This document shows positions 1 through 6,798 of a stretch of DNA of 15,121 nt, piece after piece. Position 1 is the stretch's first letter. Each line of letters begins with the position of its first letter. The notes below the pieces were generated by a model. It was not told the DNA's origin. It ran no database searches and worked only from the letters and a program-made list of their open reading frames with translations. This stretch comes from Candidatus Hodarchaeota archaeon (GTDB taxonomy: Archaea; Asgardarchaeota; Heimdallarchaeia; Hodarchaeales; Hodarchaeaceae): the NCBI GenBank assembly GCA_029856365.1, contig JAHQWW010000089.1, forward strand, positions 1-15,121. The letters run 5' to 3'. The position numbers and the translations under genes were made by a program.

Positions 1-230
1 TATATCCCAGAAAAATAATTTACAATTATCTCCTTCAATTTCCTCATCATATTTTGAAAATTGTGCTCCTAATGTTTTAATGTAGTCCCTTTGAAAACTC
101 CCTTGAGTGTATTTTTTGATTAATGAGGTTTTCCCTACTGCTCCGTCGCCAATAAGTTCACTCTACTGAATTTTTTCAATAGATCTGTGATTTTGAAGAC
201 GAAGCCTTTTTTATCTTCATTATTTCTCAT
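1..230 (-). CDS. Ras-superfamily (Rab-like) small GTPase, 5' part only, two exons (230..185 and 155..<1) separated by a putative 29-nt BHB intron
   Basis: Translated by hand. ATG at 230-228 with a GAGTGA RBS 5 nt upstream (241..236). Joining 230..185 to 155..1 gives MRNNEDKKGFVFKITVIGDGAVGKTSLIKKYTQGSFQRDYIKTLGAQFSKYDEEIEGDNCKLFFWDI, containing G1 (GDGAVGKTS), G2 (YIKTLG) and the start of G3 (WDI). Unspliced, the ATG frame stops at TAG 137-135 after 31 aa. The P-loop frame has an upstream TAG at 165-163 and no ATG/GTG/TTG start between that stop and the P-loop. Confidence 0.92.
156..184 (-). other. Putative bulge-helix-bulge (tRNA-type) intron, 29 nt: AUCUAUUGAAAAAAUUCAGUAGAGUGAAC
   Basis: Central 4-bp helix UCAC(190-187)/GUGA(161-158). 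Two 3-nt bulges on opposite strands, AGA(186-184) and ACU(157-155). Intron stem of 9 bp, UCUAUUGAA/UUCAGUAGA, with an AAAA loop. Exon-exon helix 205-191/154-140 with 13 of 15 positions paired. Cutting after nucleotide 2 of each bulge restores the frame (ACA-G/UU-AUU = T-V-I). Confidence 0.85.
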
Positions 231-275
231 TTAAATCACTCTGTATAATTTTTTTTCCGAATAATAATACTATTG

Positions 276-287
276 CTTTAAAATTTC
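276..287 (-). promoter_or_regulatory. Possible BRE/TATA box for the GTPase gene
   Basis: Minus strand reads GAAA-TTTTAAAG about 45 nt upstream of the ATG. The region is very AT-rich, so specificity is low. Confidence 0.3.
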
Positions 288-434
288 AAAAGTATAAGAT
301 ATTATTTAATTATTTATTTTTCATCGGTCCATTTTTTTTTTTCTAATGAATCTATATATTAAATTATTCAATAATACTTAAAGAATTAACCATATTCTTC
401 ATCCTTAAATCACAAAACCTAGGAATAAGACATT

Positions 435-1268
435 TTGATTGAATCAAGCTCTCAAAAAGTTGAGTCAATATTTATCTATGAAATAATAATATTTTTATGG
501 GTCATTCTCGCACTCCTAACTCAGTTTACTTCAGATTGGGTAGTAGTGGGACAAATTGTCCTTTTCTCATATGTGCTTGCTCATTTTATCTTGAAAGATA
601 ATCAGCGATTGATTCTCCCACCACTAACTAACATTATCATTCTTTACATTATCTTTCACTTCGATCAGATGATTATGAATACTCCTGTTGTAACGATTCT
701 CACTCAGCTGACCTCACACCTTCTCGTTTTACTGTTGAAATACGGAGATTTCATTCCTTTAGTTATTTTAATCGGTTCATTTTATGTTTTTCAGTCATTA
801 GAGAAACATTCTTCGAATTCTATCACAAAAATCTTGCCTATAGCTACATTTTCACTACTTTTATCCTTCTTAATCCTTTTCAGCAGTTCCTCTCAAGATA
901 ACATAACAGTAATAGACACCACAACTTTTCAGATAGATTATATTGCTCGAATCTCCATTGTTGATTCATGTTCAGGTATTTATGGCTTAATAATCTTCTT
1001 AAGTAGTTTTTTTTTCTTTGTAAACGTTACAAGGACTAATCGGATCTTTAAGAGGAAACAGGTGATTTTATTTGGAACAATTGGTGTTATAGGTGTTTAT
1101 TTACTGAATCTACTGAGAATTTTAATTTTAATTAATCTAAGCATGTGTTTTCCCACTAATATCTGGACTGAGACACATATCTACCTTGGAGGAATCTTCA
1201 TATTATCGTATCTTGCAATATTTTGGATTATAATTTGGTTAATTCTCCCAATTCGCTCCTCAACTTAG
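435..1268 (+). CDS. Archaeosortase/exosortase-family membrane transpeptidase
   Basis: Multi-pass membrane protein with the family's Cys-Arg-His triad in the expected order and context: IVDSCSG (Cys 969-971), NLLRI (Arg 1116-1118), ETHIY (His 1176-1178). TTG start; an in-frame stop at 426-428 bounds it upstream. Confidence 0.85.
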   Translation: MIESSSQKVESIFIYEIIIFLWVILALLTQFTSDWVVVGQIVLFSYVLAHFILKDNQRLILPPLTNIIILYIIFHFDQMIMNTPVVTILTQLTSHLLVLLLKYGDFIPLVILIGSFYVFQSLEKHSSNSITKILPIATFSLLLSFLILFSSSSQDNITVIDTTTFQIDYIARISIVDSCSGIYGLIIFLSSFFFFVNVTRTNRIFKRKQVILFGTIGVIGVYLLNLLRILILINLSMCFPTNIWTETHIYLGGIFILSYLAIFWIIIWLILPIRSST

Positions 1269-1394
1269 TTGTTTCTAAAAATATATTGATTTTTGAAGAG
1301 AATAAGACTTTATAACCAAAAAGAAGTGCTAGCCTGTTTTTTATAATTAGGAAAATCCAGCTAGAAACATAAGATTTTGCGGTGAGAAGATCAA

Positions 1395-2699
1395 GTGAAA
1401 TATATTCCAATTAAAAAACTGCAGGAAACAGTCGATGAAAAGGTTCAAGTTCGTGGATGGCTTCATCATGTTCGGCACCAAGGACGTCTGATTTTTCTAG
1501 TCATTAGAGATCCTACAGGTTACGTTCAAGCAGTTGTTAAAGCAGTAACAGTTGGAGATACTGTTTTTAAAGTGGCTGAAAAGCTTACCCGAGAAACTGC
1601 AATAACTGCAGAAGGTATTGTTAAAAAAGATAAACGGGCTCCTTATATTGGTATTGAATTACAACTTACTGCAATAAATCCAGTTATTGATTATGCTTCA
1701 CCTGAATTGGAATATGAGATTCGTCCTGATTCTGGTCCTCAAGTTTTATTAGATAAAAGGCACTTAGTTCTACGGGGTGAACAGGCTTCCGATATTATGC
1801 GGTTCCGAGATTATATCACCAGAAGTTTTCGAGATTTTTTCTATGGTAGAGACTTCGTTGAAGTTACTCCTTCCACAATTGTTCAAACAGAAGTAGAAGG
1901 TGGATCAACGCTTTTTGCGTTCAAATACTTCGAACATGAAGCTTATCTCACACAATCGAGTCAGCTATATCTCGAAACAGTCTTAGCAAGTCTGGGTAAT
2001 GTGTTCTGTGTATTACCCTCTTATCGCGCTGAAAAATCACGTACAAGAAGACATCTCACTGAATACACTCATATTGAAGCAGAAATGCCTTGGTATGAAT
2101 TCGAGGACCTCTTAGAGTTTATGGAAGATATGATTGTCTTTGTATATTCGAAAGCTAAAGAAAATGTCATACTAGAAAAATTCAACCCTTCAGTAGAGAT
2201 TCCATCTAAACCATTTGAGCGAGTAACCTACGAGCAATCTATTAGTCTTTTACGAGAACATGGAATTAAAGGGGAATCTGGAGAATATTTAGAGTATGGA
2301 GATGAAATTACTGAAGGGCCTGAGAGAGCTTTAGTTGATGAAATCGGCAGTCCTACTTTCTTAACTCACTTTCCAACAGGGATGAAACCTTTTTACATGA
2401 AACTAAATCCTGAAAATCCCGAAGTCATGAATGCCGTGGACTTGTTAATACCAAATGTCGGAGAAATCATTGGTGGTTCACAGAGAGAGGATGACCTCGA
2501 AATTCTCCTACAGCGAATGAGGGAAGAAGGCCTTGACACAAAACCTTATTATTGGTACATTGATCAGCGAAAATACGGTACAGTTCCACATTCAGGATTT
2601 GGCTTAGGGTTGGAACGTCAGGTGCAAGGATTGCTGAATCTAGATCACATTCGTGACGCATGTTTATATCCTCGATTAATCAATAGAGCCACACCCTGA
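1395..2699 (+). CDS. asnS: Asparagine--tRNA ligase (class IIb)
   Basis: N-terminal OB anticodon-binding fold (VQVRGWLHHVR..GRLIFLVIRDPTG), EGGSTLF, YLTQSSQLYLE, motif 2 YRAEKSRTRRHLTEY, motif 3 PHSGFGLGLER. GTG start preceded by GGTGAG. Confidence 0.95.
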   Translation: MKYIPIKKLQETVDEKVQVRGWLHHVRHQGRLIFLVIRDPTGYVQAVVKAVTVGDTVFKVAEKLTRETAITAEGIVKKDKRAPYIGIELQLTAINPVIDYASPELEYEIRPDSGPQVLLDKRHLVLRGEQASDIMRFRDYITRSFRDFFYGRDFVEVTPSTIVQTEVEGGSTLFAFKYFEHEAYLTQSSQLYLETVLASLGNVFCVLPSYRAEKSRTRRHLTEYTHIEAEMPWYEFEDLLEFMEDMIVFVYSKAKENVILEKFNPSVEIPSKPFERVTYEQSISLLREHGIKGESGEYLEYGDEITEGPERALVDEIGSPTFLTHFPTGMKPFYMKLNPENPEVMNAVDLLIPNVGEIIGGSQREDDLEILLQRMREEGLDTKPYYWYIDQRKYGTVPHSGFGLGLERQVQGLLNLDHIRDACLYPRLINRATP

Positions 2700-2827
2700 A
2701 TTACTTTGTTTTACTCTGTGGCTCCTAAATGAGGTGTTTTCATTCTTTGGAGTTCTCCTCCATAACGAAAACAGGTCTAAAAGTAGTAGTGGTAAAAAAA
2801 GCATGTGATAGCTAGTTTAAAGCTTTT

Positions 2828-3291: not shown

Positions 3292-4020
3292 ATGGAAATT
3301 ATTAGACATTCCGAAATTTCTGTTCGTGATCTCATTAAACAGCGTAGCGAATTCCCAGAGAAAGATAAGATGCGTAGAACTATCAATGAAGATAATATAA
3401 AACGGGTATTTAAAGCAATTTCTAAAACGGAGAGAACTGAAGCCCAAATTAGTGAGACGATTACTTGGTTGGAAAGAATATCAGAATATATCCCAATCCC
3501 AAGTGAGAAGGAATTAGAAGAGATAATTAAATTGATGATCATGTTAAGTGAGGTTCGTGCTAAGCTTAACTTTTTGTATGATAAGCCTGGTCTTAATTTG
3601 ATGAAAAGAGTTCGAGAATGTATGATCAGATATCTTATTGTTTTATCAGAAATTCGGGCCCAAAGAGAAGAATATTTTACTCATTGGTTCACTGAAGAAT
3701 CATGGATATTCGATTGGAGCCGTATCATTCTTGACCTCTCGCCATCTGACAACATGGAAAAATACACTTTCCCAGATTTAACTGTTCATGATTTCTTGTT
3801 TCTTTTAACGCTGGAATTAGCTTGTGCAGATTCTACCTCCAAACTAGATAGCCCAATGATAAGAATGCAAGCTATAAAAGGTAAATCTGGGAGTTTCATT
3901 ATTATTCCCACTGAGGCAGCAGCAAAAGAATACCAAATACAGGTTTCAAAAATCCTCAATGAAGAATTAACATTTGCAGAGTGGGTTGATCAGATGTTAA
4001 TCGCATATAAGTTACCATAA
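3292..4020 (+). CDS. Hypothetical soluble, largely alpha-helical protein (242 aa)
   Basis: Long ORF with an AGGTGA RBS upstream of ATG 3292. No family motif recognised. Confidence 0.75.
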   Translation: MEIIRHSEISVRDLIKQRSEFPEKDKMRRTINEDNIKRVFKAISKTERTEAQISETITWLERISEYIPIPSEKELEEIIKLMIMLSEVRAKLNFLYDKPGLNLMKRVRECMIRYLIVLSEIRAQREEYFTHWFTEESWIFDWSRIILDLSPSDNMEKYTFPDLTVHDFLFLLTLELACADSTSKLDSPMIRMQAIKGKSGSFIIIPTEAAAKEYQIQVSKILNEELTFAEWVDQMLIAYKLP

Positions 4021-4101: not shown

Positions 4102-6798
4102 TTAATGGTCTTTCTTACCTTTTGGGGAAGTTAGGTTTGGATGCAAGCCTTTAGATCTTTCCTCAAGATATTCATCAATGACCTTTTCCCAACCAGGCCA
4201 AATTAAGGGAGTCCTCCGCATTTGTCTTGGAACATAGGTATTAATAGCATTAGCAACATTTTTGATAGATGAACGATAGCTGGGAATTATTGTACTGATA
4301 ACCGTTATCAGAAAGGCAACAGTAACCCAGAAAGCGATTAATGTCCAAGAAATATTTGTTTCAATAGGGATTGATTGACTTATGTACCAAGCCATCAATT
4401 CTCCTCCGATTACTCCATTCATAATGCCCAGAATTACCCCTGATATTCCTAAGAGAGTTGATTCTCCAAAAAAGGTCGAAATAACTTCTCTTTTAGATAA
4501 TCCTAAGGCACGCATTATACCAATTTCCCTCTCCATTTTTAGAGTTGAAATCAAAATGCAGATGAACTGAGCTAATCCCGATAAGAGGAAAGTATGAAGA
4601 AATAGCATCTGAAAAAGAGCAGTTTGTACAATCAAAGATTTTTCTATAACCTTTGTATAGTAATCAATAGAAATAACTTCTTGAAATATGTCTTGGTACT
4701 TGAACGATAGACGATCCGTAATGGTTTTAAGAGGTTCACTGCTTTGTGAAATGGACATTACAAACCATTTAGCGGTATAATTTTGCCAAAAATCTTGAAA
4801 CAACGCGTCTGAGAAGAATATGTAAAGGCCTTGATGTAAGAATGGATTACTGGCGGCAATACCAGTAATTATTACCTCGGTACTTGAATTTGATGTCACC
4901 TGGACTGTTAAATTCTCACCAATCCTCAATCCGATACGATCTCGAAGAAGATGGCTGATTATGACCCCTTTTTCTGTTTTATTCATTAATTTTGGAATAT
5001 CAGGATCAGCTGGCGCTAAGGTTGTCCCCTTAAAGAAATAATTGTAAGAATTGGGATCCATTCCAAAAACGTAACCATTTACGTTTTCAATCTTAGTTCT
5101 TTGCTGCAACAAATATGCTGCTCTTTCTATATTAGTATTATTGGACACCAACTGGTTAACAAACCGTGAGGGATATGATGTACTGACTTTAGTCTCAGCA
5201 ACAATATCAATTACTCCATAACGTTCGTTGTAGTAAGCAGGAATTGTTCCAATGACAGCTCTTGATGTGATTCCAACTACAAGAATGAATGTAAGCGCAA
5301 GAGCTGCTACCATTATTGTCACAATAGATTTTTGAAATTCTCTCCTAATATTTCTTGTAGCAATGGTTCTGGGTACTAATCTATGCCAGATCATTAGTTT
5401 CATTCCTATATTCGGTATGAAGTGTAATAGCCCTGCTTCAAGAAGTAATGTTCCAATAAAAATCGAAAAAACTACAAAGAAATGCCAAGAAATAATTTCA
5501 AAAGCTAAAAATCTGCTAGGTCCAATGTAATAGGTAGTTCCAATTCCGATAACAGTTAATAAAGCACCAAGTATTACTAGATAAATCCAATTCTTTGTGG
5601 AAGCTTTTTTCTTTCTCATTTTCCAGTGGATATTCTGAACAACGGGGAGATTTATTGCTGTAAAAATCGGGTATAAACCAGAGATCAAAGCTACAAGAAT
5701 TCCAGTAATGTAGGTTGTAATTATGGAAGTTGGCAGAAGTAATAACACTTCAATGCTTAAGGTAGGAAAATTAAGGTTCAAAAAACCTATAAGTATCACG
5801 GAAAACCCGATTCCAATCGTAATTCCAATAAGGCTCCCAAGTCCACTATAGATTAATATTTCCAGTCCAAGATAAGTAATAATTTGACGATTTGAGGTAC
5901 CAATTGCTCTTAAAACACCAAATTCTTTCGATCGTTCTCTAACATTGATTGTCAGTATATTGGTAATAAATAGAAACTCTATGGCAAATGAAGCAATAAT
6001 TATTAGATTCAATGCCGCCTGATACGATCGAATAGCTAATAATTCGTTTTCACTAATTGATTTCTCTCGATAAACATAATAATCCAAACCTAACCCCTGA
6101 GTATCTTCGATTTCTTCTGCAATGGCATTAATTTTGACAAAATCATTAACTTGAACTACTAAATGATAATTCAAATGAGAGGTATTTGAAAACCTATCAA
6201 CCAAATAGTTAATATCTAGTAGAACGAATAAATAACCTAAATAATTACCAAAGTGTGATTTATCATTCATAATTCCTGATATTCTTATATTTGAACCAAG
6301 AAAATTATACTCAGAATTCTTAGGAAGAAAATATGTTTCCCCAGGCATTATATCGATGAAATCAGAAATTGATTGCGAAATTATGGCCTCACCAGGTTCC
6401 AAGGTACGATTGCCAGAAATTAATTCAATGTTAGGAAAATCAGGATGTGTTCCTGTTTCTAATCCATATATTAAAATGTTATTGGGGATTTCCGTTGATT
6501 CTGTCAACTCCTCCATATAATTAATCGTTGCAACAAGACCTACTTTTTTTGTTCCTGGTATTGTCTTTACTAATTCAGATAAGCTCTTCATTTCTTCTAT
6601 TCTTGTTTTTTCTTTCGGATGGATGGTGATATCAGTAAAATTATCTCCTCGATGACTCTCAATGAAATCTCCATATAACGAATCAATAGTTACAGCTATT
6701 CCTGTTTCAAGCCCAACTGAAATAGCTATTCCAATTATTATCAGAAATGAGCGCCATCGATTACGTGTAACATTTCGCTTAGGAAGAGTTGTTGCCAT
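4102..6798 (-). CDS. FtsX/MacB-like (type VII) ABC transporter permease with two tandem periplasmic-core plus FtsX modules
   Basis: Two copies of the signature (ERSKEFGVLRAIGTSNRQI and EREIGIMRALGLSKREV), two RN..R....RS-type N-terminal helices (RNVTRNRWRS, RNIRREFQKS), and large extracytoplasmic loops. Confidence 0.9.
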   Translation of the reverse strand: MATTLPKRNVTRNRWRSFLIIIGIAISVGLETGIAVTIDSLYGDFIESHRGDNFTDITIHPKEKTRIEEMKSLSELVKTIPGTKKVGLVATINYMEELTESTEIPNNILIYGLETGTHPDFPNIELISGNRTLEPGEAIISQSISDFIDIMPGETYFLPKNSEYNFLGSNIRISGIMNDKSHFGNYLGYLFVLLDINYLVDRFSNTSHLNYHLVVQVNDFVKINAIAEEIEDTQGLGLDYYVYREKSISENELLAIRSYQAALNLIIIASFAIEFLFITNILTINVRERSKEFGVLRAIGTSNRQIITYLGLEILIYSGLGSLIGITIGIGFSVILIGFLNLNFPTLSIEVLLLLPTSIITTYITGILVALISGLYPIFTAINLPVVQNIHWKMRKKKASTKNWIYLVILGALLTVIGIGTTYYIGPSRFLAFEIISWHFFVVFSIFIGTLLLEAGLLHFIPNIGMKLMIWHRLVPRTIATRNIRREFQKSIVTIMVAALALTFILVVGITSRAVIGTIPAYYNERYGVIDIVAETKVSTSYPSRFVNQLVSNNTNIERAAYLLQQRTKIENVNGYVFGMDPNSYNYFFKGTTLAPADPDIPKLMNKTEKGVIISHLLRDRIGLRIGENLTVQVTSNSSTEVIITGIAASNPFLHQGLYIFFSDALFQDFWQNYTAKWFVMSISQSSEPLKTITDRLSFKYQDIFQEVISIDYYTKVIEKSLIVQTALFQMLFLHTFLLSGLAQFICILISTLKMEREIGIMRALGLSKREVISTFFGESTLLGISGVILGIMNGVIGGELMAWYISQSIPIETNISWTLIAFWVTVAFLITVISTIIPSYRSSIKNVANAINTYVPRQMRRTPLIWPGWEKVIDEYLEERSKGLHPNLTSPKGKKDH

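Follow-up and report, generated by a model that had tools for sequence, protein, structure and literature searches.

Bulge-helix-bulge (BHB) introns lying within an archaeal coding sequence have, in the literature searched, been reported for cbf5 only (PMC7714728, PMC2738675, PMC12397907). The cbf5 pre-mRNA intron of Crenarchaeota is short, at 16-44 nucleotides, it lies at the codon of the catalytic Asp, and its splicing has been proven by complementary DNA (cDNA) and in vitro (Watanabe 2002; Yoshinari 2006; Yokobori 2009, PMC2738675); the rule that each bulge of a BHB motif is cut behind the second of its three bases has been stated for this same intron (PMC2738675). Beyond tRNA and rRNA, the tRNA splicing endonuclease also acts on the BHB intron in the 5' untranslated leader of the Haloferax volcanii HVO_1309 mRNA, as knock-down of endA and cleavage in vitro have shown (PMC7714728). 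In tRNA genes such introns occur at canonical and non-canonical positions, and some Asgard genomes contain them in very large numbers (PMC11291895; PMC5829648). BHB introns in protein genes of Asgard archaea were not found in the literature searched. Here we describe a 29-nucleotide insert at 184..156 on the minus strand of contig JAHQWW010000089.1 (C111 of assembly G000, catalogued as Candidatus Hodarchaeota), all 15,121 nucleotides of which make up the window. At a probability of roughly 0.82, we take it to be a genuine BHB intron in the coding sequence of a Rab-like GTPase from a Loki-type Asgard archaeon (family f20), with the first ~321 bases of the window being a misjoined fragment resembling genome G178.

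The gene starts with an ATG at 230..228 and codes MRNNEDKKGFVFKIT, after which comes the insert; downstream of it, in another frame, (G)UU AUU GGC GAC begins the stretch VIGDGAVGKTS...FFWDI, which is cut short by the contig end at position 1. Without splicing, the reading frame stops after 31 codons. The initial annotation had placed a BHB intron here, and all of the pairs it listed are present. The exon-exon helix (205-191 with 154-140) forms 13 of 15 pairs, with mismatches at A192xA153 and U197xC148, and is followed by a central helix of 4 base pairs joining UCAC (190-187) with GUGA (161-158). On opposite strands lie two 3-nucleotide bulges, AGA (186-184) and ACU (157-155), and the intron stem (183-175 with 170-162) is paired at 9 of 9 positions below an AAAA loop (174-171). 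Three G.U pairs (179-166, 196-149 and 202-143) are wobbles on the minus-strand RNA only, as had been pointed out. The minimum free energy (MFE) fold of 210..135 gives this BHB structure at a dG of -25.8 kcal/mol; shuffled sequences average -11.4 (z = -5.79), none of 200 folding as well. As helices flank it on both sides, the motif, which we refer to as type 1, takes the strict hBHBh' form.

When each bulge is cut behind its second base, after G185 and C156, exactly 29 nucleotides are removed and the Val16 codon is rebuilt as G|UU, with a predicted mRNA junction of ...AAAATCACAG|TTATTGGCGAC. Splicing 184..156 by this rule yields a 67-residue N-terminus beginning MRNNEDKKGFVFKITVIGDGAVGKTS, which equals that of the intronless ortholog P0024 except for one R/K. 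The predicted product FKITVIGDG matches P0024 and other intronless orthologs exactly, so that both the small-GTPase N-terminus that had been anticipated and the existence of uninterrupted alleles are borne out. Moving both cuts by one base places Leu where a conserved Val belongs, and the P-loop GDGAVGKT (motif G1) is assembled only by splicing. Judging from the sequence, the 29-nucleotide insert would almost certainly have to be cut from the GTPase mRNA.

How does this locus compare with the systems described above? The GTPase intron appears to work like that of cbf5 without being a member of the cbf5 intron family, and would be a new case of an endonuclease-spliced archaeal mRNA intron. Both are short (28-30 nucleotides here), both interrupt codons of a motif for catalysis or nucleotide binding, and both have a BHB-type fold in which the cut follows the second base of the bulge. 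In both cases, too, the host has a hetero-oligomeric endonuclease, presence and absence are lineage-specific, and gene callers tend to miss or mis-annotate the intron. In contrast to cbf5, the host gene here encodes a Ras-superfamily GTPase of Loki-type Asgard archaea, its type-1 motif is strict hBHBh', a form that contrasts with the mostly relaxed motifs of cbf5, the family has at least three insertion sites, and splicing is predicted from DNA sequence. The HVO_1309 intron is likewise an mRNA substrate, but being in an untranslated leader it is independent of frame. Archaeal tRNA introns are alike in motif, in predicted enzymes (EndA and RtcB) and in length, and GTPase sites that are 2 nucleotides apart (see below) resemble shifted tRNA intron positions; the GTPase exons, however, encode protein, so the exon helix is built from codons. 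A more distant parallel is the splicing of HAC1/XBP1, where Ire1 cuts and, in animals, RtcB joins: there too a protein enzyme cleaves at mRNA stem-loops, an RNA ligase follows and a frame change sets the protein, although nuclease and motif differ, the process is regulatory in eukaryotes, and the two are not homologous as introns.

The type-1 intron recurs, as 28- or 29-nucleotide variants, in at least seven further assemblies or contigs, with two NCBI MAGs among the carriers. G178 (record JAEOTZ010000056.1) carries the same 29-nucleotide insert base for base on an 84-kb contig (L051/L099), the intron region lying at C43:72,680-72,800. G208 (L042, NCBI JBHLMP010000023.1) differs by three changes, namely a stem U.G to C-G, a loop A to G and a central-helix U-A to U.G. 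More diverged versions are found in G222, G155 and L094, and three metagenome contigs (L180-L182) hold 28- and 29-nucleotide versions. Because the insert recurs in independent assemblies, it is genomic and not an assembly artefact, which disposes of an objection that had been foreseen. It varies in the loop and at two stem pairs, with U-A turned into A-U in one instance, and the stem changes preserve pairing; across carriers 91-92% of cells are paired, as opposed to 41-51% once the partner strand is moved out of register. When searched with a degenerate 30-nucleotide pattern allowing 3 mismatches, G178, G208, G222 and G155 returned no dispersed copies, only the GTPase gene itself; the intron sequence is single-copy in each genome, and we rejected a mobile intron family. 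In the metagenome collection, a pattern with a gap of 0-30 nucleotides between the tuned exon flanks found the unspliced 28- and 29-nucleotide forms only, and no spliced-junction or cDNA-derived contigs.

The same gene is interrupted in other ways as well. Seven carriers (G228, G226, G192, G193, G179, G227 and locus L095) have a 30-nucleotide, stop-containing insert of unrelated sequence, here called type 2, with a central helix GAUY/GAUC and bulges ACU and ANN, which is cut 2 nucleotides upstream of the type-1 site (AC|N) and upon splicing also gives KITVIGDG. Five pairs of its stem have changed on both sides, the central helix is 100% paired, and the covariation score of 0.298 lies above that of shuffles (0.199 +/- 0.024), being reached by none of 500. 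The compensatory stem changes that had been suggested as a check are thus found in type 2; those of type 1 are taken up further on. Asgard EndA is of the broad-specificity (alpha-beta)2 type (PMC5829648), and such an endonuclease with an L1 loop should accept the relaxed type-2 motif (PMC5829648). A third BHB insert, again of 30 nucleotides, lies between the WDI and AGQ codons in G160 (L084/L160). All three inserts, unrelated in sequence, share the geometry of 3-nucleotide bulges and a 4-base-pair helix, and restore the same protein. The G160 site is also the codon boundary at which the window contig ends (...WDI), where G178 has no insert; this match looks accidental. Among 80 species-level loci, four carry type 1, three type 2 and one the site-B insert. 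In a gene tree from which the flanking codons were left out, this distribution requires at least ten state changes, and intronless sequences are sisters to some of the carriers, at Shimodaira-Hasegawa-like approximate likelihood ratio test (SH-aLRT) support of 92-99.

These shared features also bear on translational recoding, whereby the ribosome would frameshift within the insert or bypass it without any RNA splicing. Phage T4 gene 60 is an example of translational bypass, and the insert is, like bypass elements, short with a stable hairpin; moreover, the cbf5 intron was once taken for a frameshift (PMC2738675). Yet homologous inserts of 28, 29 or 30 nucleotides between unchanged exons leave no single shift size that fits, and the 28/29 variation in particular speaks against a ribosomal frameshift of fixed size. 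The TAG at 165..163, in the exon-2 frame on which the ribosome would have to land and 3 codons ahead of the junction, leaves ~8 nucleotides for a shift, with no slippery run. Read-through, in turn, would put 9-10 extra residues between beta-strand 1 and the P-loop. Finally, three unrelated inserts all obey BHB geometry, with the junction exactly at the second/third bulge base. Recoding therefore strikes us as very improbable.

The host gene is a Ras-family GTPase (PF00071), of which the window copy ends at WDI. Several hundred Asgard proteins, each ~179 residues long, match its exon 2 at 92-96% identity, and the full G178 allele holds WDIAGQ, GNKID and TSAK (motifs G3, G4 and G5). The C-terminal Cys prenylation motif of eukaryotic Rabs was not found in these proteins, which end in ...YRYKED or ...NKYKEE, and for this reason we call the GTPase Rab-like only. 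Once spliced by the BHB rule, the gene gives in all carriers an intact product of 178-180 residues with motifs G1-G5, so in carriers it is not degraded. Between carrier pairs the ratio of nonsynonymous to synonymous substitution rates (dN/dS) is 0.02-0.12 at a synonymous divergence (dS) of 0.2-1.9, values which indicate that the carrier genes are under strong purifying selection. A decaying paralog, disabled by an insertion whose hairpin is incidental, would account for the broken frame and the truncated window copy, and with ~30 GTPase paralogs in Asgard genomes one could be dispensable. The truncation in the window, however, is simply the contig end; carriers in several species are otherwise intact, with the low dN/dS persisting at dS values up to 1.9, and their flanking synonymous sites are invariant. 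We find a pseudogene hardly credible.

The initial annotation had also expected that pipelines would call the gene a pseudogene. What they deliver instead are N-terminally truncated genes: public protein records are 163 (P0036), 166 (P0011) or 168 residues long (P0087, P0091), with P0041, P0042 and P0090 also truncated, and these gene calls begin just past the 29-nucleotide intron, at an ATT codon, or within the 30-nucleotide intron. Some truncated records come from metagenome-assembled genomes (MAGs) labelled Heimdall-, Hod-, Thor-, Odin- or Hermodarchaeota; the species-representative truncated records and all 80 related loci retrieved belong to Loki-type families (f20 and neighbours). In single-contig genomes of the sister family f19, the orthologs (~60% identity) are uninterrupted.

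G178 and G208 differ from the nearest intronless alleles at ~40 of 537 sites, and 8 or 9 of these differences fall in the 42 nucleotides around the junction (9/41; P = 0.004). They occupy third codon positions, six in a row on the 5' side of the junction and two or three on its 3' side. Between the two carriers themselves, none of 38 differences lies within this stretch. The canonical BHB has a free energy of -25.0 kcal/mol with its own exons, and of -10.1 kcal/mol with those of the intronless allele, where it is no longer the best fold. The synonymous codons next to the intron are tuned to the splice helix, which may reflect either selection on RNA structure or co-conversion with the intron.

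Whose gene is it, then? Window positions 321..1, non-coding leader included, are ~99% identical to G178, and 321..2 are 95% identical to G208/L042, both of which belong to GTDB family f20; homology to G006, of the same genus as the window, covers 334..2762 only, at 86% identity (coordinates of all features are given in the table). Another contig of G000, C58, matches the continuation of G006 at the same 86%; its end (3942-3965) overlaps window 340..317 and then continues, as Hodarchaeales-type DNA, into a GTPase that is syntenic in relatives. Joining C58 to C111 restores an arrangement conserved in relatives, in which a membrane protein and a Rab-like GTPase stand in divergent orientation. The GTPase that relatives have in synteny is the counterpart of the one on C58, not of the window gene, and this revealed the chimera. 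Position 1, the last base of the chimeric end, mismatches G178. The GTPase family is present in 132 of 135 f20 genomes; it was found in none of 21 genomes of the window's genus, nor in the sampled families of its class, and that genus and class hold no ortholog above 52% identity. Within G000 the rest of the gene was not found, no contig overlaps window position 1, and the MAG yielded neither the neighbouring Loki genes of the GTPase locus nor other G178-like DNA. Positions 1..321 appear to be a misassembled Loki-type fragment on a contig of Hodarchaeales type, while the intron itself is real. The organism had been named as a probable Asgard archaeon, which stands, but the gene's host has to be sought in the Loki-type f20 (G178-like) and not in the Hodarchaeales-type MAG to which the remaining window belongs.

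Alternatively, promoter and gene might have entered an intergenic region of a Hodarchaeales-type genome by recent horizontal transfer. An insertion that varies between strains could explain why one intergenic region holds the ends of both C111 and C58, and the join lacks a long shared k-mer. Against this, the 24-nucleotide overlap of C58 and C111 is exact and colinear with the synteny of G006, leaving no gap for an insert. An identity of ~99% to the genome of another class, extending through the non-coding leader, a fragment that ends 321 nucleotides in with its last base mismatched, the lack of neighbouring Loki genes in the MAG, and a family not found in the genus (0 of 21 genomes) do not fit such a transfer either, and we regard it as unlikely, preferring the misassembly.

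Table. Features of the window (positions on the forward strand)
Feature	Position	Strand	Remarks
Exon 1	185..230	-	ATG 230..228, codons for MRNNEDKKGFVFKIT, G185 as first base of Val16; equals residues 1-15 of intronless P0024
29-nucleotide BHB intron (type 1)	156..184	-	phase 1 in the Val16 codon; TAG (165..163) in exon-2 frame; base-identical insert in G178
Exon 2, ended by contig edge	1..155	-	UU of Val16, then IGDGAVGKTSLIKKYTQGSFQRDYIKTLGAQFSKYDEEIEGDNCKLFFWDI; Pfam Ras PF00071, E = 3.6e-12
Complete hBHBh' splice motif	140..205	-	MFE fold and geometry check
Promoter and 5' leader of Loki-type GTPase gene	231..321	-	near-identical to G178 (alignment to L051)
Chimeric junction	317..340	.	340..317 is an exact 24-nucleotide overlap with the C58 end; switch to Loki-type DNA at ~321..317, in an A-rich run
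Multi-pass membrane protein	435-1268	+	277 residues, no Pfam match
Class II Asp/Asn-type tRNA synthetase	1395-2699	+	PF00152, PF01336; ordinary Hodarchaeales-type
FtsX/MacB-type permease	4102-6798	-	898 residues; ordinary Hodarchaeales-type

The membrane protein next to the junction occurs in 13 of 21 same-genus genomes (39-79% identity), and in the loci examined it is a divergent neighbour of a Rab-like GTPase. In the true hosts, the intron-bearing gene stands in the context CinA / GTPase / thioredoxin / V4R / GTPase / TBP. In the Loki-type loci L042-L047, L094 and L095, the intron-bearing GTPase is the first in a row of GTPase, thioredoxin (after a gap of 3-4 nucleotides), V4R, second GTPase and TBP.

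The machinery required for splicing is encoded by the carriers. RtcB (PF01139) scores above the cut-off in G178, G208, G222, G155 and G182, with one gene each in the first four, and the EndA family (PF01974) does so with at least two genes in G178, G208, G222 and G182, and with one found in G155, which is 83% complete. In G178, the genes for the EndA alpha and beta subunits lie at C2:77.4 kb and C39:1.8-2.1 kb, and that for RtcB at C7:4.3-5.6 kb. G000 encodes EndA and RtcB genes of its own, but given that the intron is Loki-type and misjoined, these are not the relevant enzymes. Together with the recurrence of the intron and the purifying selection on its carriers, these host genes agree with the proposal that this is a spliced, protein-coding gene for a Rab-like GTPase of an Asgard archaeon. 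In the mechanism we propose, the pre-mRNA can fold such that the codons flanking the insert pair, presenting the two 3-nucleotide bulges around the 4-base-pair helix. The heteromeric (alpha-beta)2 splicing endonuclease of the host would then cut at the bulges, and RtcB would join the exons, as for tRNA introns and crenarchaeal cbf5 mRNA. This would restore the connection between beta-strand 1 and the P-loop, giving FKITVIGDGAVGKTS, while unspliced mRNA would yield only a 31-residue peptide.

We must however take into account several points that weigh against a BHB intron in this GTPase gene. In type 1 covariation is weak: one pair has changed on both sides, and with 5-7 distinct sequences the covariation score is not above shuffles. 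The exon-exon helix of type 2 is in turn weak, which makes its motif a relaxed one. The enzymes that would act on the GTPase mRNA are named from gene presence only. Finally, a strict scan of G178 (339 kb plus the locus) returned the known intron only, and the phenomenon may be rare in that genome; this is a weak negative, because 10% of G178 was sampled and strict motifs only were scored. These hidden-intron scans combined BHB geometry with a test for the fusion of open reading frames, using shifted cuts as controls. Under strict criteria the whole of G000 likewise showed no excess (9 vs 8-12), and under loose criteria there was no enrichment in either the G178 sample (25 vs 18-24) or G000 (270 vs 240-274). 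The wider set of hidden mRNA introns surmised by the initial annotation is thus not shown by genome scans, though one gene does have three intron sites across lineages.

As to tRNA genes, ARAGORN finds only 12 in the 4.2-Mb MAG G000, and in 7 of these it predicts introns at odd positions; standard finders probably miss many tRNA genes of G000 because they are disrupted or multi-intron. The borders of ARAGORN tRNA introns agreed with the BHB cut in 2 of 10 cases, and with few tRNAs found we judged this control uninformative.

In practical terms, the case exposes mis-annotation, as versions truncated to 163 and 168 residues stand in public records, and the chimera serves as a warning, since the window at face value would wrongly credit a Hodarchaeales genome with a gene and an intron that are of Loki type. 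Only tentatively can we go further and propose that protein-coding mRNAs may be spliced by the tRNA machinery as a regular and evolutionarily dynamic trait of Loki-type Asgard archaea. Mini-introns would then have been gained, lost and moved by a few bases within one GTPase gene (three sites, at least ten state changes), with neighbouring codons selected for the splice helix, and splicing may gate the GTPase that heads the GTPase-thioredoxin-V4R module. Asgard archaea are the closest known relatives of eukaryotes. If the intron described here is what we take it to be, endonuclease-spliced coding introns would extend to these archaea, and to a GTPase of eukaryote-signature type.
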